Sequence record: NC_047885.1
DNA from: Escherichia phage chee24
Reading direction: 5' to 3' (one strand)
Length of the DNA stretch: 64,000 nt
Position numbers and translations under genes: made by a program. Within the stretch, counting starts at the first letter, position 1, and each line of letters opens with the position of its first letter. Positions 277 through 63,508 of the stretch are shown here, piece by piece. A model generated the notes under the pieces. It searched no databases, had not been told where the DNA came from, and saw only the letters and a list, made by a program, of their open reading frames with translations.

Positions 277-1116
277 GTGAGGAATTGTACAGTGCGTAGA
301 TTAATTATTATCAGTGGTGCAGGTTTGAGTGTTGAAAGTGGTGTACGAGCCTTCCGTACTGATACTGCTAGTGGTAAAGCATTGTGGGATGATTATGACT
401 TAGAAGAGGTATGTAATATTCATGCCTTTCGTGGTAACTTTTATCATAAAACCCATATGTTTTACAACAAGCGACGTGAAGAGCTAGAAACTGTTGAACC
501 TAACCTTGCGCATCTTCGTATTGGTGAGTGGTATAAGAAATATCCGGGTCAAGTAGTAAATTTGACTACTAACGTTGATGACCTTATTGAGCGTGCTGGT
601 GTTCCCCATAATGATATTCTCCACATTCATGGATACTTAAAGGAGGTTGTTGTAGCTGATAGCTATAATAGTAGCAATAAACGAGTTATTGATGTTGGGT
701 ATAGCTCTATTGACCCAGATGATTATAAATGGGTTAAACCTAATGTAATCTTCTTTGGTGAGCATGCTCCAGCGTACGCAGAAATGTACAATATTTTTGA
801 TGGTATTACTAGTCAAGATATGATCGTTGTAGTTGGTTGCTCTAACCAAGTAATTAATTTCTACTGGGAATTATTTCCTATTCTTAACCGTACTGCTGCG
901 AAACTTATGGTGGTTAACTACTACGATAGTGCCCTAGCGGCAGAACCAGGCTATCAAGGTATGACTCGTAGTGATATGTACCAGTTGGAAGATCGTGGTA
1001 TTCCTTACTGGAGTAAAGGTGCGGTAGATGCTTTCAGTGATCCTGGTTTTATTGCTCGTGTAGAAGCTCATCTAGAGGGTAGACCTTATATGCCGGGAAA
1101 ACAAATATGTCCATAG
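277..1116 (+). CDS. Sir2 (sirtuin)-family NAD-binding protein
   Basis: 279 aa with GTG start 5 nt after AAGGA. Rossmann motif GAGLSVESGVRAFR, TTNVDDL (sirtuin TQNID-like) and catalytic-type HG in LHIHGYL. No CxxC zinc-ribbon pairs, so deacetylase versus NADase cannot be decided. Confidence 0.7.
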   Translation: MRNCTVRRLIIISGAGLSVESGVRAFRTDTASGKALWDDYDLEEVCNIHAFRGNFYHKTHMFYNKRREELETVEPNLAHLRIGEWYKKYPGQVVNLTTNVDDLIERAGVPHNDILHIHGYLKEVVVADSYNSSNKRVIDVGYSSIDPDDYKWVKPNVIFFGEHAPAYAEMYNIFDGITSQDMIVVVGCSNQVINFYWELFPILNRTAAKLMVVNYYDSALAAEPGYQGMTRSDMYQLEDRGIPYWSKGAVDAFSDPGFIARVEAHLEGRPYMPGKQICP

Positions 1117-1289
1117 TTAAATCTGTATATACACATCCCGATGATATATTTGTATGGGCGGATGGTAGTTGGTGCTATCGATGTGAGCTATGGGAAATGG
1201 ACTATAAATCCGATGACTATGGTGTCATATATGTTGATACGGTTGAGTATGATACGTTCTTAGAAAGGGACAAAAATGGAAATAAGTAA
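1107..1289 (+). CDS. hypothetical small protein (60 aa)
   Basis: ATG ORF overlapping the end of the Sir2-like gene and the start of the next gene; compact phage-style packing; no recognisable motifs. Confidence 0.3.
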   Translation: MSIVKSVYTHPDDIFVWADGSWCYRCELWEMDYKSDDYGVIYVDTVEYDTFLERDKNGNK

Positions 1290-1782
1290 TACTCCAATTA
1301 TTTTTCTAGATATTGATGGGGTGCTCAACTCTAGCATCTCCCATCACCATGCACCTGATGATGAGAAGATTTTCTTCGGAAGTGACTGGGTTTTTAAGCC
1401 GCTTCTCAAGGCTTTTCAGGACTTTATTCGTCCTTCTCCAATAATGATTGTTGGGGTATCTTCATGGTTCTCTGTCAGGAATGAGATGGAGAACGTTCAG
1501 ATTATGACCGGATTAGATCTTATCGATCGTTTTCTTGGTACAACGGATTTTACTGGTGGTGGGCTATCTAGGGGTAATTCTGTTCTTCGCTTCGTTGAAA
1601 AGCATAAGCTCAAACATTGGTGTGTGCTGGATGACGCTGGTGCTATGATGTATCAGTATCCAACGGTTATAGTCAACGGTAGAACTGGAATAAATCTTCA
1701 AGATTTAAGAGCTGTTAGCTATATGTTAGAATTTAGTCCAGATCTTGAAATGTGTAAAGCCCTACAACAATTTAAGGTGTAA
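1276..1782 (+). CDS. HAD-superfamily phosphatase-like protein
   Basis: 168 aa; N-terminal FLDIDGVLN (HAD motif I, DxDGx) and C-terminal VLDDAG (motif IV-like); RBS AAGGGA upstream. Confidence 0.55.
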   Translation: MEISNTPIIFLDIDGVLNSSISHHHAPDDEKIFFGSDWVFKPLLKAFQDFIRPSPIMIVGVSSWFSVRNEMENVQIMTGLDLIDRFLGTTDFTGGGLSRGNSVLRFVEKHKLKHWCVLDDAGAMMYQYPTVIVNGRTGINLQDLRAVSYMLEFSPDLEMCKALQQFKV

Positions 1783-1784
1783 AT

Positions 1785-2213
1785 ATGTTCAATAATGTAT
1801 TTTCTAAAGAAGCTAACCCAATATTGGTTAATTTTTGGCGTACTCTTCCAGCCAATCTGTACAATGAGGCTATTAACTCCTTGAAAATATGGTGTGAGAA
1901 TAACGAAATCTCCTTTGCTTTTAAAGATGATATTGATGAGGCTCCCTGTATTGGTTTAATTGTTCAGGTAGAGGAGGGTCTTGAAGAAATTGTCGGTTGG
2001 AAAGAGTTAGATGAAATGGGCTTAGTTTTTGCGTTAAACTATAAGCTGTTTATGCCTGCTAAGCATCGCCTCGTTGTTAACTATAAAACTAGTGAATCTC
2101 CTGGTTTTCAGGTTAATGAACGTTATGGTTGGTCTTACTCACCGGAAGAAGTAAATGAGGGGATTCAGAAACTTCGACATTTCGGGTATATGATCCCAGG
2201 TTTAACTGCTTAA
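1785..2213 (+). CDS. hypothetical protein, member of a tandem paralog pair
   Basis: 142 aa; shares blocks with the next ORF (APCIG / DPCIG, MGLVFALN / MGLIVALN, GYMIPGL / GIYVPGL). Confidence 0.5.
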   Translation: MFNNVFSKEANPILVNFWRTLPANLYNEAINSLKIWCENNEISFAFKDDIDEAPCIGLIVQVEEGLEEIVGWKELDEMGLVFALNYKLFMPAKHRLVVNYKTSESPGFQVNERYGWSYSPEEVNEGIQKLRHFGYMIPGLTA

Positions 2214-2222
2214 GGAGGCAGA

Positions 2223-2615
2223 ATGGAACAAGTATATTGGCGTCAGATTGACCCTAGTTTGGTGAAACGTGCGGAGAAGCTGCTACAACGTTGGTTGGGG
2301 GTAAGACAAGTCTCCTTCACTTTTCCGGAGCAGCAAACGGATGATCCATGCATTGGCGTTTTCCTGTCTGGATATGCCGGGGAATGGGAATTGGATTGGA
2401 ATGAATTGTCTGCTATGGGCTTGATTGTTGCCCTAAACTTCTCTTTGTTCCATCCACGTGGTTTGGCCATATGTCGTGTGCCTGATGATGGTTGTTCGCC
2501 CCATCTTTTACAGGTGGAAGATGATATTTGGGAGTACACTCCAGATATTCTCACAGAAGCTAAAGAACAATTAAATCGTGTTGGGATTTATGTTCCGGGC
2601 TTAAATGATGAATGA
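2223..2615 (+). CDS. hypothetical protein, member of a tandem paralog pair
   Basis: 130 aa; strong RBS TAAGGAGG 6 nt before the ATG; paralogous to 1785..2213; followed by a terminator hairpin. Confidence 0.55.
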   Translation: MEQVYWRQIDPSLVKRAEKLLQRWLGVRQVSFTFPEQQTDDPCIGVFLSGYAGEWELDWNELSAMGLIVALNFSLFHPRGLAICRVPDDGCSPHLLQVEDDIWEYTPDILTEAKEQLNRVGIYVPGLNDE

Positions 2616-2639
2616 TTTTTATTAGCTGAACTCTGATTA

Positions 2640-2663
2640 CCGAGTCATTTTGGCTCGGTTTTA
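2640..2663 (+). terminator. rho-independent terminator
   Basis: Hairpin CCGAGTC-ATTTT-GGCTCGG followed by TTTTA, 25 nt after the stop of 2223..2615. Confidence 0.6.
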
Positions 2664-2706
2664 TCCGTACTCAAGACCAATGATAGCACCATCCGGAAAA
2701 TTTTAC

Positions 2707-2735
2707 TTGCATGATGCCCAAAATCTTGATATAAT
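2707..2735 (+). promoter_or_regulatory. sigma70-type promoter (TTGCAT-17-TATAAT, TG-extended -10)
   Basis: -35 TTGCAT about 2707-2712 and -10 TATAAT about 2730-2735 with TG two nt upstream; same downstream box (ATTTATATTGAATTGAGAG) as the other promoters here. Confidence 0.55.
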
Positions 2736-3234
2736 ATTTATATTGAATTGAGAGACATTAGTAAAAATTGATTTTGCTAATTTTTCTTGTTTACAATCCG
2801 CGATACGGAACAGTTAGGCTGCCCCATTAAGGGTTGTTTTAACTGTTACGTGTTAGTTTTTAAACAAATAGTTAATAGAATACTTAGCGATCTGCGTCCC
2901 GTAGGAACCCTGGTAAGGCCTCGAAGCAACCTAGATAGAGGTGGTTGTGAAGTGAGACGGGAGGAGTGAAAAACTCCGAGACGTGATTCTGTAAGTTATA
3001 TTGCATCTAGTATGAGCTAGTATATGAAGCATTAGGTGAGCAAATCTGGCTTAGCGGCCATCCTCAAGGATTTGTGCGGTATAGCAAAGCAGCAGCGCAG
3101 CGTGAAAGTGGAAGTTGCCACCCCACTTCAGTATTTGCGATTAATTTGTTGAGAAATTGACAGTAACAGTTGTTCTATTCTTTCTGAATAGTCCTAAAGA
3201 AAACTTATTTCATTTCCAACACAGGAGTATTGTT

Positions 3235-6024
3235 GTGTTTTCAATCCTACAAGGTCATGCAGGATTTCATCGCGATTTAGCCACAGGCAATTGGCGAGAA
3301 GTTAAAGCAGAAGATTATCTTTTTGCTAAAAGATTTTCCTCAAAGCATCCTGAAGGTAAACCAGCTTCAATGCCCTTCAAGTTTGATGTAATTGACGAAG
3401 TTGATCCTCAAACCCTAGTAGAAATGCTTCCTCTTATGAGACGTTTAACGTCTGACCCTCATATCGTTGCGGTACGAGGTCGATGTCTTGCACCTAAAAA
3501 TAATGTGCGACGTAAGAAGGGCAACTTTAATGTATCTAATCCAAGTCATATAATCGCAATGGATGTGGATGGTATTGTAGATACAGGAGGTTGTAACAAG
3601 TTTGATCTTGTTGGCATGGCGCGTCATATTATTAGGATGTTGAATAGTATTAGTGAGGATATGTTTCCTCTTGATGCAGGGTTTATTGCTCATGCATCAT
3701 CTTCGGCTGGACTAAAACCAGGTATCCGAATGCACTTAATACTAGAATCTAATGTTAAAGTTACACAGGGCCAGATCAAGTTCTTATTTACATCTATCAA
3801 CGAAAGTAGTAGACAAAAGTATGGTTTTGATATTGCCGACTTAGCTTATTACTCTTCCGTACAGCTCCACTATTTTGCAGATCCTTTATTTACTGATGGT
3901 ATAGTTGATCCGTTTAAAGCGGAGAGTGCTTCACGTCTGGTATTTGTTAAAGGCTCAAAAGTAAATTTACCTAATAATCTAGTTGACTATGAAACAACTA
4001 GAGGAGAGTTTAAAGAGGAATTCTACTCTTTACTCGATCAAATTAAAGGTAAAAAAGCTGCCTCTGATAAAGTAGAGGAAACTATCAGTGAGCTAGAAGA
4101 GGCTGATGATGGGGTATACTTACGTATTATTCCAAAGCTATATCACCGAGCGTTAGAGGATGGGGTAGATTTTGGTTGGCTAGAGAAAGAAATCCGCCCA
4201 GCTTTATCAGAATATATTGCAACTAAAGATAATAGCCGTAATATTCAGGATTATTTCAATAACGGACGGAAGCAGGCATTAAAAGCCTTTGTGAATAACT
4301 CTAAGCGTGAGATCCCTGAAGTATTAAAAGGTATCCCCCTTAAAAAGCTAGAAACTAACTCACTAGAGACCGACAACTTCTTGAAATTAAATACTGTACC
4401 ACCAGAAGGCTATATGACTTTTGTAAAAGCAAGTCTAGGTACAGGTAAAACCACGGCTGTTGTTCGTTGGCTGGATTCAGGGGTTATTAAAGGTAATTTC
4501 TTAGCAATTACCAATACTAGGGCACTAGTGTCTTCAAATGCTAAGAAATTTAGCGCAGGTCAATATGATAAATCTGTAGATATGCTCAACTTTAAACGTG
4601 GGGCTATTGATCGTATGTCCACAACCATTCACTCTTTGCATAAGTTTAAGAGTTTTATTGGTCAAATTGATGCAATCTTTATAGATGAATGTGATGCAGT
4701 AATGAATGACCTATTATTCGCCCCGGTTGTTAAGCAACGTCGCGAGTGTATTCAGGTTCTTCGAGATATTCTTGCAACTGCAAAAATAATTATATTATCT
4801 GATGGAGATATTAGTGCAGAAACAATTGAAGCATATGGTTCTTTGATTGAGTTTGATAAACCAGTTGCATTTTACAATCACCACCGTAAAATGTTATCAA
4901 AGGCTCATGCTTATGAGTTTCCTGATGAATCCAGTATTTGGGTTGCACTTCAAACATCACTAGAGATGGGTGAGAAATCTATTCTAGTATCTGATTGTGG
5001 CCCTGATGAGCTGAATGAGAAGGGTATGGCACTACGTCGTAATACTGGTGCGTTAGTTAAGGAAATCCATTCAAACTCTACCTCAGATGTGGATATTCGA
5101 CGTATTCTGGATTATACAACTAATGAGCTAATTGATCAACAAATTGATTGCTTATTATGTAGTCCATCCGTAACGAGTGGTGTTGACTTCAACTATTTTG
5201 ATAACGTATTCGTTATTACTAGAACCAGTAATCAAGCGCCAAACATGCGTTTTCAAGCAATCAGGCGCGACCGTGGTGCTCAGAACATCTATTATTTTAT
5301 TGATAAATCCACTAGTGGATTCTCCGCAGGTTCTGAACAATATAATATTGATGAAGGTTGGCTGGAGTTAGCACAGCAATTATACGCACGTCGCAGGGAG
5401 CTGGAATCTAGAAACTATACTAGTACCTTACGTTATTACTTGCTTGATCAGGGTGCAACTATTGATATTTTCAGCGAAAGCTGGGGAACTATTGAAGGTG
5501 CTGGTAAAGAGTACACAGAAGAGCGAATCAAAGCTATTCTACATTCAACCCCGGATTATTGTGCTCCACGTCATGCGGATGCGTATGAAGCTAAACTACT
5601 TCTTGTTCGCTATTATCATCTTGAGTCTATTAAAGATGTAACAGTTGAGCATGTTGAACAATATATCAAAGATAAACCGAATGATCGAGCTGCATTCTTC
5701 CATAAGATGCACGAGATGTTCTGGGAAGATATTAAGAAGTGTTCAAATATAACCATTAAACCATTCATAGAAGCTCTAAAAGGTAAGAAAAAGGACTTCT
5801 TCCTTAAAACAGGTCAGAGTGCTAACCCAAAATATGCTAGAATGTATCTTGGTATGATGGGTATCGGTAAGGATATGAACACTGAAAATATCGTAGACTG
5901 GTATAGAACCTACTGCAAAATCGAGTGTATGCCAATTCCTTATAAGTTCATGACTGATGAGGAAAAACATATGCACGATGAAGCAATGTCAGAACTAGGT
6001 GCTAGAAATGACAGTGAAGAATAA
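3235..6024 (+). CDS. replication protein: AEP primase-polymerase-like N-terminal domain fused to a P-loop helicase/ATPase (origin-binding-protein-like)
   Basis: Longest ORF begins at TTG 3157; the likelier start is GTG 3235 (AGGAG 7 nt upstream). N-terminal HIIAMDVDG (AEP DxD-like) and AHASSSAGLKPGIRMH; Walker A SLGTGKTT and Walker B IFIDECDAV mid-protein. Confidence 0.6.
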   Translation: MFSILQGHAGFHRDLATGNWREVKAEDYLFAKRFSSKHPEGKPASMPFKFDVIDEVDPQTLVEMLPLMRRLTSDPHIVAVRGRCLAPKNNVRRKKGNFNVSNPSHIIAMDVDGIVDTGGCNKFDLVGMARHIIRMLNSISEDMFPLDAGFIAHASSSAGLKPGIRMHLILESNVKVTQGQIKFLFTSINESSRQKYGFDIADLAYYSSVQLHYFADPLFTDGIVDPFKAESASRLVFVKGSKVNLPNNLVDYETTRGEFKEEFYSLLDQIKGKKAASDKVEETISELEEADDGVYLRIIPKLYHRALEDGVDFGWLEKEIRPALSEYIATKDNSRNIQDYFNNGRKQALKAFVNNSKREIPEVLKGIPLKKLETNSLETDNFLKLNTVPPEGYMTFVKASLGTGKTTAVVRWLDSGVIKGNFLAITNTRALVSSNAKKFSAGQYDKSVDMLNFKRGAIDRMSTTIHSLHKFKSFIGQIDAIFIDECDAVMNDLLFAPVVKQRRECIQVLRDILATAKIIILSDGDISAETIEAYGSLIEFDKPVAFYNHHRKMLSKAHAYEFPDESSIWVALQTSLEMGEKSILVSDCGPDELNEKGMALRRNTGALVKEIHSNSTSDVDIRRILDYTTNELIDQQIDCLLCSPSVTSGVDFNYFDNVFVITRTSNQAPNMRFQAIRRDRGAQNIYYFIDKSTSGFSAGSEQYNIDEGWLELAQQLYARRRELESRNYTSTLRYYLLDQGATIDIFSESWGTIEGAGKEYTEERIKAILHSTPDYCAPRHADAYEAKLLLVRYYHLESIKDVTVEHVEQYIKDKPNDRAAFFHKMHEMFWEDIKKCSNITIKPFIEALKGKKKDFFLKTGQSANPKYARMYLGMMGIGKDMNTENIVDWYRTYCKIECMPIPYKFMTDEEKHMHDEAMSELGARNDSEE

Positions 6025-7275: not shown

Positions 7276-7304
7276 TTGCTTAATCCTATAATTCTTGATA
7301 TAAT
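7276..7304 (+). promoter_or_regulatory. sigma70-type promoter (TTGCTT-17-TATAAT)
   Basis: TTGCTT AATCCTATAATTCTTGA TATAAT with TG-extended -10; about 55 nt upstream of the 7362 gene. Confidence 0.6.
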
Positions 7305-7361
7305 ATTCTCATAGTTTGAAAGAACTATTCTGTTTAATTCTTAATTAAGGAAATATAAAAT

Positions 7362-8491: not shown

Positions 8492-8520
8492 TTGCTTTCA
8501 ACTCAGTTTTGTTATATAAT
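8492..8520 (+). promoter_or_regulatory. sigma70-type promoter (TTGCTT-17-TATAAT)
   Basis: TTGCTT TCAACTCAGTTTTGTTA TATAAT then ATTTATATAAATTAATGAGAGG downstream box. Confidence 0.65.
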
Positions 8521-8549
8521 ATTTATATAAATTAATGAGAGGATCAATC

Positions 8550-9857: not shown

Positions 9858-9886
9858 TTGCTAAATGCTTAAATACTTGCTATAAT
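9858..9886 (+). promoter_or_regulatory. sigma70-type promoter (TTGCTA-17-TATAAT) for the ligase C-terminal subunit
   Basis: TTGCTA AATGCTTAAATACTTGC TATAAT then ATTTATATAAATTGATAAGGAAG. Confidence 0.6.
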
Positions 9887-9916
9887 ATTTATATAAATTG
9901 ATAAGGAAGAAATTTG

Positions 9917-58968: not shown

Positions 58969-59763
58969 ATCTGCGATTCCTTATAATGAATAAGTTTACC
59001 GCCGATAGACTTTAAGATATACCCAATTTTTAAAGAGCGCGGCGGTAAACTTCCCGCCGTGTAGTTCGTCATTGCCGCCCTACGTGATAAATAATAGGGT
59101 ATTCCCGAAAATGGCGCAACCTTATTTTTGTAAAGAAACGTAAAGAAAGCAACACGTTCGGCGCTCACCTAAGTTTAAAGGAAACGGGCGCGCGAATACC
59201 ATAAAACCAAGCAGATAGGCAAGTAATTTTTTCATTTATATTTGCCTTGCCCTACTTGACAAAATCTAAAAAGCTCGTGGTAGCGATAAACGGCTTATCC
59301 CCTTATGATGGGATGGCTAAAAACTTCATCGCGTTCTAGGACGTTTTAGGCGCATTCTAGCCTTGTTGATAACTTATCCCCAAAAGCAAAAATGAAATTT
59401 TCCTAGTTATCCACTTGACTTTTATTTTCCAGTGGATAACTACTTATTTTATAAAATTAATTAATTGACTTTTATTTGTTAGTGTGTATCGGAAAGATAG
59501 CAGACTAATAATTGTTAGGATTATAATCATGCTGGTGGATTGTAACAGCCTGAACTATTAGCAGACTATTAATCTCGGAAAATCTCATTAGCCAACTAAC
59601 TATTTCATATTATATAATATACATATAAATTAATGAGAAATAATAATTATAAGAAATCGTAACCGATAGAAATAATAACTACAAAAATAATCACCGTTAT
59701 AATAATAACGATAAGAAACTATCGGCCTAAGTGAGAACCACTATCATTTAAGTTATTCACAAA

Positions 59764-59833
59764 GTTATCCACAGCACAAAATGATTTGACACGATAGGCG
59801 GCGATATAAGGACTTATCCACAGACTTATCCAC
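59764..59833 (+). promoter_or_regulatory. cluster of three consensus DnaA boxes (TTATCCACA)
   Basis: Perfect 9-mers at about 59764, 59813 and 59825; further near-matches TTATCCACT / AGTGGATAA as an inverted pair at about 59407 and 59431. Confidence 0.5.
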
Positions 59834-59841
59834 ATGTTATC

Positions 59842-63425: not shown

Positions 63426-63508
63426 TGGGGATAAGTCTGTGGATAACGCCTCAAAATGGCTAGGATTCTGTCAAGTCAAATCGTGCTGTTGATAAGTCTG
63501 TGGATAAC
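63426..63508 (-). promoter_or_regulatory. DnaA boxes in inverted orientation
   Basis: Two copies of GATAAGTCTGTGGATAAC (reverse complement contains TTATCCACA) at about 63429 and 63491; the 18-mer TTATCCACAGACTTATCC is shared with 59813-59830 in opposite orientation. Confidence 0.45.

Follow-up and report, generated by a model that had tools for sequence, protein, structure and literature searches.

Several well-described replication systems place a long, folded RNA beside the site or gene that controls initiation. In the RNA II pre-primer of ColE1, at the R-loop origins oriF and oriG of phage T4, and at the promoter-dependent primary origin of phage T7, a strong promoter is combined with a multi-stem RNA of several hundred nucleotides at a replication-control locus, and the folding of the RNA is a selected property. 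In the mRNA leaders of plasmid initiators (IncFII repA/CopT, the IncI-alpha/IncB repZ pseudoknot, and ColE2 rep), a structured 5' untranslated region (UTR) stands directly before the replication protein gene, and the autogenous operators of T4 genes 32 and 43 share this 5' UTR position. Furthermore, in RNAs processed by RNase III, such as the lambda N leader, the T7 early mRNA sites, the rpsO-pnp leader, and the 16S and 23S rRNA stems, a long stem is formed from the flanks of a structured RNA, and GOLLD, ROOL, OLE, and raiA, all of which are in Rfam, are large RNAs with many helices, conserved loops, and an association with phages. Here, we report on a stretch of 64,000 nucleotides (nt) from Escherichia phage chee24 (NC_047885.1; the whole stretch is hereafter called the window), in which the spacer between the homologue of T5p105 and gene D2 (positions 2616–3234) was predicted to specify a large structured RNA that shares properties with each of these groups.

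The locus also differs from each of them. Compared with ColE1 RNA II, no RNA I-like antisense promoter was found, the transcript runs on into a protein gene, there is no similarity in sequence or by covariance model, and an origin at this locus is indicated by position only. Compared with the RNase III-processed systems, cleavage is a prediction here, and the enclosed domain is a conserved core of ~245 nt rather than rRNA or a simple hairpin. The initiator leaders and autogenous operators, from which a role in dosing the initiator would be expected, are much smaller or need an antisense RNA or a leader peptide, whereas no conserved peptide was found here and sequestration of the ribosome-binding site is not conserved. 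Unlike GOLLD, ROOL, OLE, and raiA, the RNA has no Rfam match at E ≤1 in any of its sequence types and is present in T5-like phages only, fixed before one gene. To our knowledge, neither the replication origins of T5, a classical model phage, nor the way in which its initiator helicase D2 is controlled has been pinned down in sequence; with its place between a strong early promoter and D2 in the genome centre, the conserved RNA offers a testable handle on both.

Results

Loci were gathered through homology of D2 from IMG/VR, metagenomes (10 loci), and GenBank phages, and those of our collection are referred to by L numbers. The spacer was present in 536 phage records, and D2 at an identity of ≥60% in ~532. 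At least nine sequence types could be distinguished in Demerecviridae, and the leader always lies between a promoter of the kind described below and D2. Type A is that of the window and type B that of T5 and BF23. Type C is that of the D2 group at 73% identity, in which Klebsiella phages may be placed from the level of identity, and type F is that of the D2 group at 65%, probably Pectobacterium My1-like phages; the further types are D, E, G, I (a metagenome contig), and that of Serratia phage Kamaji. The window itself was matched by 522 T5-like phage records, and its segment 2500–3400 was 100% identical to "Bacteriophage T5-like pork27" and the relatives of that phage.

The model of the RNA, given below in window coordinates, was derived by folding each type and comparing the types with one another. 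It represents an element of ~370–430 nt with 12 or more helices, in which a long-range helix (LR) encloses a core of ~245 nt presenting the invariant loop CUUAGCGG. Inside LR, the model has a three-way junction of Px, P10, and a multi-helix core (P5, P5a, P5b, P6, P7, and P8). Its features are as follows.

2749–2789, + strand: H1, 5'-terminal hairpin (GAGAGA.CAUUAGUAAAA / UUUUGCUAAU.UUUCUU), predicted in every type with stems that differ
2803–2827, + strand: M2, conserved motif AUACGGAACAGUUAGGCUGCCCCAU, kept in types A, B, C, E, F, and I at a constant distance from the start
2816–2839, + strand: P2, from the structure model
2840–2884, + strand: LR 5' arm of the long-range helix (~40 base pairs [bp] in three segments), pairing with 3130–3172
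2892–2897, + strand: Px 5' strand, CUGCGU, closing the central domain and pairing with 3095–3100
2898–2961, + strand: P5 domain, with P5 (2898–2902/2957–2961), P5a (2909–2918), and P5b (2920–2923/2953–2956 and 2926–2931/2943–2948)
2963–2977, + strand: P6, hairpin GGAGU-GAAAA-ACUCC with covariation, followed by conserved GAGAMGUGAU (2978–2987)
2995–3085, + strand: P7 (2995–3004/3076–3085), enclosing P7a (3007–3020) and the P8/HP module
3040–3075, + strand: P8 (3040–3047/3068–3075) with hairpin HP (3048–3059), whose loop CUUAGCGG (3050–3057) is invariant
3095–3100, + strand: Px 3' strand, GCGCAG, pairing with 2892–2897
3106–3128, + strand: P10, hairpin AAGUGG/CCACUU, with loop AAGUUGCCACC conserved in types A, E, and F
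3130–3172, + strand: LR 3' arm, pairing with 2840–2884
3175–3191, + strand: Ht, hairpin CUAUUC-UUUCU-GAAUAG, predicted in types A and B; type C has CUAUC-CUU-GAUAG

Comparative analysis confirmed, as far as sequence can tell, that the leader is a conserved structured RNA whose pairing is kept by compensatory changes, more often than in shuffled or slid controls. Among 19 distinct sequences in a plain MAFFT alignment, three pairs of Px varied (G-C in 12 and A-U in 7; C-G in 14, U-A in 3, and G-C in 2; G-C in 11 and A-U in 8) with no broken standard pair, the sixth pair being gapped in four type B rows. For P5, P5b, and P6 together, types A, E, F, and I were aligned with MAFFT on sequence only; 98.4% of the cells were paired, compared with 37–55% in slid controls, and both sides had changed in 12 of the 18 pairs, with a covariation score of 0.635 compared with 0.262 for shuffled alignments (none of 500 as high). 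The P8/HP module was paired at 97.5% in ten types, with a covariation score of 0.919 against 0.225 for shuffled alignments (0/500), a score that leans towards structure because this module was aligned by hand. A hand-curated table of nine helices in six types had 727 of 729 cells paired, compared with 35–44% when the partners were slid; this percentage is inflated because the helices were picked per type from predictions, and the weight of the table lies in the recurrence of the same nested helix order with unrelated sequences.

The variation within type A pointed in the same direction. Among its 154 predicted pairs, there were five compensatory double changes (two in Px and one each in P5, P6, and P10), about a dozen one-sided changes, all of which were wobble-compatible, and about five changes that break a pair. 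The change in P10 was from U-A to G-C, and that in P6 was from G-C to A-U. The latter belongs to the stem-loop GGAGT-GAAAA-ACTCC that had been noticed near 2965 in an earlier annotation of the window made from the sequence alone (the first-pass annotation); this stem-loop, located at 2963–2977, can be regarded as real because its stem co-varies (AGAGT..ACTCT in relatives). The duplex energy of LR was lower than that of shuffled arms by z = −3 to −8 in six of the seven types and by z = −1.9 in type C; its one-sided changes were wobble-compatible, and one LR pair in T5 and BF23 runs through G-C, G·U, and A-U. Furthermore, the minimum free energy of the + strand was 13–45 kcal/mol below that of the − strand in 9/9 representatives, with 221 G·U pairs compared with 120, although this strand test does not separate RNA from + strand single-stranded DNA because G·T wobble is tolerated in folded single-stranded DNA. 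The whole leader had a minimum free energy z-score of −2.6.

Several anchors stood at a constant distance from the start in six of the types, namely M2 (GAACAGU) at ~+67, the Px 5' strand at ~+145, CUUAGCGG at ~+305, the Px 3' strand at ~+350, and the P10 loop at ~+370. As for the loops, CUUAGCGG was present in all types, the motif being found in nine sequence types and additionally in Aeromonas phage TS3, and UAGAUAGAGGU (the loop of P5b), GAGAAGUGAU, and GUUGCCACC were present in most. The P5 domain had the same shape in types B and C, the stem sequences of P6 differed in types C, E, F, and I, and T5 had AUAUGA/UCAUAU at the place of P10. A helix occupied the topological position of P7 in all six analysed types; P7 is nevertheless the least certain part, because RNAalifold on type A alone preferred a different local pairing there. 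No variation of H1 was seen inside type A or inside type B, and the hairpin may serve to stabilise the RNA or to cause pausing. Ht is no terminator because no U-tract follows the hairpin, and the spacer downstream of it is A-rich and weakly structured. In type A only, a partial second copy of the invariant loop motif (CTTAGCG) was observed at window 2883–2889, just upstream of the Px 5' strand.

A covariance model, R1, was built on the P5 domain. No type other than A, E, F, and I was recovered with it: at the type C site the score reached 8.5 bits (E = 4), and no significant score was obtained for types B and D or for the loci of the Vibrio, Serratia, and Aeromonas phages. No homologue of the RNA was found in 5,426 E. 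coli genomes and 72,556 plasmids. Long non-coding stretches also stand before the D2 homologues of more distant phages: Serratia phage Kamaji has 433 nt, Vibrio phage JSF12 more than 1 kb that carries no annotation (L040 1–1041), and Aeromonas phage TS3 1.6 kb (L043 1–1608). The TS3 region has CUUAGCGG twice, one copy being the loop of a clean hairpin (CCCGAAAA/UUUUUCGGG), together with repeated GGCGGAACC elements and an M2-like ACGGAAC..GUUAGGCUCC. In TS3 and JSF12, these long regions may hold the RNA in an enlarged or duplicated form, model R1 being too narrow to prove homology for TS3.

Between the window and T5 or BF23, the flanks of the leader (2600–2850 and 3163–3260) were nearly identical (90–100% to T5), and the central ~310 nt had an identity of ~40–48%, with equal length and with islands of identity such as GGCTTAGCGGCC kept. 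Divergence between this phage and T5 is raised in a single island made up of the RNA core and of the N-terminal half of D2. On the side of the gene, the N-terminal half of D2 (3235–4500) had a DNA identity of 74–87% to T5, and the C-terminal half (4500–6024) and the upstream genes had 91–100%.

The spacer also varies by insertion. An 89-nt insert, flanked by duplicated TTTTTCTT, was observed directly after H1 in L013 (~2058–2146), L025, and L034, at the place that corresponds to the position after window 2789. It occurs in type A and type B leaders and in 51 T5-like phage records (DT57C, Gostya9, phiR2-01, and others), and it has never been annotated. A multi-copy mobile element was rejected as an explanation, the insert being single-copy in each of the 51 phages; it resembles an additional stem-loop module that is optional in the RNA.

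With respect to coding capacity, the spacer encodes a conserved RNA and no conserved protein. The weak open reading frame (ORF) of 60 codons at 2787..2969 that the first-pass annotation had pointed out, as lacking a ribosome-binding site, exists and starts with TTG without a Shine-Dalgarno (SD) sequence. It is not conserved: it gains a stop codon in the near-identical relatives L005, L008, and L045, it stops after 21 codons in T5 and L026, and the remaining lineages each have different ORFs. A PHROG search of the small spacer ORFs matched no family. Some GenBank records annotate spacer ORFs as hypothetical proteins, and the small "hypothetical proteins" that stand in this spacer in many records are thereby corrected.

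The transcription unit is bounded by the following features.

2223–2615: T5p105 homologue, with two DUF7415 domains
2639–2663, + strand: terminator hairpin of the upstream operon (ACCGAG..CTCGGT followed by TTTT), from sequence; inverted repeat I18; annotated in phages Lindwurm and BF23
2707–2735, + strand: predicted sigma-70 promoter of the T5 early type, with −35 TTGCAT (2707–2712), a 17-nt spacer, TG (2727–2728), and −10 TATAAT (2730–2735)
3223–3227 and 3235–3237, + strand: SD AGGAG and start codon GTG of D2, from sequence, annotation in relatives, and frameshifting indels upstream in relatives
3235–6024, + strand: gene D2, 929 amino acids, an SF2 helicase annotated as replication origin-binding protein

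The terminator at 2639..2663 closes the upstream operon directly ahead of the leader, which makes the leader a separate transcription unit. The promoter matches in sequence what is expected of a T5 early-type sigma-70 promoter, with hexamers 17 nt apart and TG at −15/−14; its extended −10 element is TGaTATAAT (2727–2735), and an A/T-rich stretch lies upstream. All the elements of the strong extended −10 promoter that had been read at 2707–2735 are thus in the sequence. The form TTGC..N17–19..TAnAAT stands at the same place in most lineages examined (types A–F, I, and the Serratia phage), and a putative promoter is annotated at the equivalent place in T5 (AY692264). A generic promoter scan did not list this promoter because its −35 element matches only 3/6 positions. 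The likely start of transcription, as judged from the promoter sequence, is A2742, and the leader would accordingly extend over ~493 nt to GTG 3235, close to the ~480 nt of promoter-driven sequence estimated before.

A terminator scan from the promoter to D2 (2742–3235) found no terminator-like site, the same scan having also missed the annotated terminator at 2639–2663; the intrinsic terminator expected of a transcription-attenuation leader between the structured domain and D2 was likewise not found in it. Because no terminator was found between the element and D2, the structured RNA probably forms the 5' leader of the D2 mRNA and is co-transcribed with D2. The retention of a strong promoter even in leaders whose promoter region has been replaced by an HNH gene was also counted toward co-transcription. 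In these leaders, observed in Salmonella phage S132 (L054 740–1250) and in L011, L015, L016, and L049, an HNH homing-endonuclease gene stands in place of the original promoter region and supplies its own promoter (TTGCAA..TATAAT), joined exactly at the start of H1, and the RNA stays intact. In L028, the promoter and H1 are duplicated in tandem.

D2 starts with GTG at 3235, preceded by SD AGGAG, the GTG being annotated as the start in database records of relatives. The possible in-frame start TTG 3157 was excluded because close relatives have 1-nt indels that disrupt the frame between this codon and position 3235 (+1 in L022; −1 in L026, L027, and L035). D2 matches Pfam Herpes_ori_bp, NCBIfam CyRepA1, and PHROG 3712.

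No relation to a known RNA class emerged. Rfam 15 gave no match at E ≤1 for window 2000–4000, and, for 12 loci covering all sequence types, only two chance hits of 28.7 and 23.3 bits compared with gathering scores of 100 and 114. ARAGORN found 0 tRNA/tmRNA genes in the whole window, and a literature search for an RNA element, motif, or transcriptome in T5-like phages or Demerecviridae returned nothing relevant. The RNA is a family not yet catalogued and has no Rfam counterpart. Bacterial RNase P RNA is similar to the element in size, and M2 (ACAGAACAGUCCGGCU in type C) and GGCUUAGCGGCC are superficially like the CR-I and CR-V sequences of E. coli M1. However, there was no covariance-model hit, and an RNase P-like P4 pseudoknot of GCUGCC (2819–2824) with GGC-UU-AGC was rejected because the flanks of CUUAGCGG in type F co-vary as a local hairpin (GAC/GUC) with M2 unchanged. 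A kissing interaction between the P10 loop and P5b was set aside as probably due to chance, the register of complementarity shifting between types. Pairing of 2800–2806 with 3227–3233 as a translational switch was also rejected; it is present only in types A and B and broken in some variants, and the other types differ or are unpaired.

As for properties of the DNA, a repeat search at the leader found no iterons and only short two-copy repeats, no DnaA box (TTWTNCACA) was present in 2600–3300, and a promoter scan inside the leader found no antisense promoter. The only A+T-rich stretches were the promoter and the ribosome-binding spacer. The GC skew at 2900–3050 was +0.35 to +0.42, so that the RNA is G-rich relative to C.

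Discussion

In the first-pass annotation, this spacer had been read as a 5' leader with structure, as a small RNA, or as a replication origin, and the same annotation had proposed a search for structural conservation across T5-like genomes. Such conservation was found, with covariation above the controls, and the structured leader is the reading that it bears out, given an architecture maintained by compensatory changes across deeply diverged T5-like phages and no conserved ORF. A start of D2 at 3157, which would have spoken against it, is contradicted by the indels and by the annotated GTG. A small RNA in the form suggested did not hold up, the element being large and the scan showing no terminator-like site before D2; a processed and released RNA is possible.

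The function of the leader can only be inferred. We tentatively prefer a leader that acts in cis on the D2 mRNA, undergoes processing and protein binding, and doses the initiator helicase, a mechanism to which we would give a little less than an even chance. RNase III prefers double-stranded RNA of about 20 bp or more. LR reaches this length, with 10 + 11 + 5 bp nearly continuous in the window and runs of 13–25 bp in other types, and cleavage would be expected because of this general specificity for long double-stranded RNA. In the proposed mechanism, H1 would lie at the extreme 5' end, a position typical of stabilising hairpins, and host RNase III would cut LR, which is predicted to be a nearly continuous double-stranded stem of 26–40 bp in every type, thereby detaching, releasing, or inactivating the structured core. 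The D2 message would then begin near 3172 with Ht, followed by the A-rich, open ribosome-binding region. The conserved loops CUUAGCGG, UAGAUAGAGGU, GAGAAGUGAU, and GUUGCCACC could be recognition sites for D2 or another phage or host protein, and such binding would make synthesis of the initiator depend on how much of it is present or on the stage of infection. The processed, protein-bound cis leader is preferred because the invariant loops may be best explained as recognition sites and LR as a cleavable stem.

Several points weigh against this interpretation. The central 310 nt are only 39–48% identical to T5 between flanks of 90–100%, and several conserved loops are missing in T5; as read from the sequences, a swappable specificity module would account for this divergence of the core no less well than a simple leader. 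Types B, C, and D were missed by model R1 and are held to be homologous on the strength of anchor motifs, their spacing, and an alignment by hand. Sequestration of the D2 start region is not consistent, and no simple on/off translation switch is therefore visible. The 12 or more helices are far above the number in known protein-binding translational operators. Furthermore, shuffled sequences are as stable as the central domain (z ~0), and therefore the case for structure rests on comparison and not on energy.

A serious rival, although less probable in our view, is a stand-alone RNA: the core enclosed by LR (~245–290 nt, 2885–3129) would be excised in the way that rRNAs are excised from processing stems and would serve during infection as a trans-acting scaffold, decoy, or catalytic RNA, with D2 merely sharing the promoter. 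The size of the element, its many helices and several invariant loops, a closing helix long enough for excision, and a very strong promoter set against the weak GTG start of D2 would all suit such an RNA, as would a core that behaves as an exchangeable cassette with boundaries inside LR, the optional modules tolerated outside the core (the 89-nt insert after H1 in 51 phages), and the non-coding 1.6 kb of TS3, in which CUUAGCGG occurs twice. However, the RNA was never found apart from D2 in the loci collected, the scan of the leader gave it no terminator of its own, it has no likeness to a known ribozyme or ribonucleoprotein RNA, and no partner gene is evident. A second serious rival, to which we give less weight, is that the promoter and the structured RNA activate or prime a central T5 origin beside the initiator gene, at which D2 would be loaded. 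The leader has no iterons or DnaA boxes, no antisense promoter was found in it, and it is A+T-rich only at the promoter and the ribosome-binding spacer; moreover, the compensatory changes indicate selection on intramolecular folding, which an R-loop primer would not obviously need over 370 nt. These objections have to be set against the position of the leader, at 48.5–49.6% of the genome length, with T5 origins reported "near the centre" of the genome (10.1101/866236), the description of T5 D2 as a bipolar helicase and putative initiator (PMC3632103), the match of its helicase part to a plasmid replication protein family, the divergence of the N-terminal half of D2 and the RNA core as one island, as is seen in replicon specificity modules, and the G-richness of the RNA.

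Two further explanations are unlikely, namely that the element works purely as DNA and that it codes for protein. An array of double-stranded binding sites, a cruciform origin, or a single-strand initiation signal in + strand DNA would agree with the symmetry of inverted repeats in DNA and the tolerance of folded single-stranded DNA for G·T wobble; such an element seems highly improbable to us, since a conserved strong promoter fires into the sequence in the same orientation in most lineages examined, no repeated boxes are present, and 12 or more nested helices with wobble pairs would be unexpected for a double-stranded site. Even less credence can be given to small proteins or a leader peptide encoded by ORF 2787..2969, ORF 3036..3152, or an upstream in-frame D2 start at 3157, which we regard as practically negligible: these ORFs are present, and some carry the hypothetical-protein labels mentioned above, but they are interrupted by stops in near-identical relatives and absent in T5, no SD precedes 2787, PHROG gives no match, and 1-nt indels break the frame from 3157 to 3235.

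If the leader is what it appears to be, a large structured RNA family is added to the short list of those from phages, and the cassette-like replacement of its core among otherwise near-identical phages suggests a role related to specificity or conflict. A bolder and rather improbable proposal is that it represents a new class of large phage RNA that works with D2 at the central T5 origin as a processed cofactor, primer, or specificity determinant, with a core swapped as a cassette and with the CUUAGCGG hairpin, conserved from Escherichia to Aeromonas phages, as the recognition site.

Several other features of D2 and its surroundings were observed. Residues 1–390 of D2 had no match in Pfam and PDB sequence searches, and D2 motifs such as HIIAMDVD and SSSAG..H appear, by sequence, to recall the catalytic motifs of primase-polymerases. 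Two DUF7415 proteins that are paralogues (1785..2213 and 2223..2615) are encoded in the upstream operon (window 277–2615), together with a Sir2-like protein and, at 1276..1782, a HAD domain of the "Swiss Army Knife RNA repair" type; the operon is possibly an RNA-repair or NAD-related module. Clusters of perfect or near-perfect DnaA boxes were observed elsewhere in the window, four boxes within 82 nt at 59753–59834 (+ strand) and two more at 63438–63507 (− strand); they probably belong to the "injection stop signal" region in the terminal repeat of T5-like phages (10.1101/866236). The TTGATATAATATTTA sequence of the −10 region of the leader promoter also recurs at window 7293–7307, 8514–8528, and 9876–9894, and these three sites are probably further early promoters of the same class.

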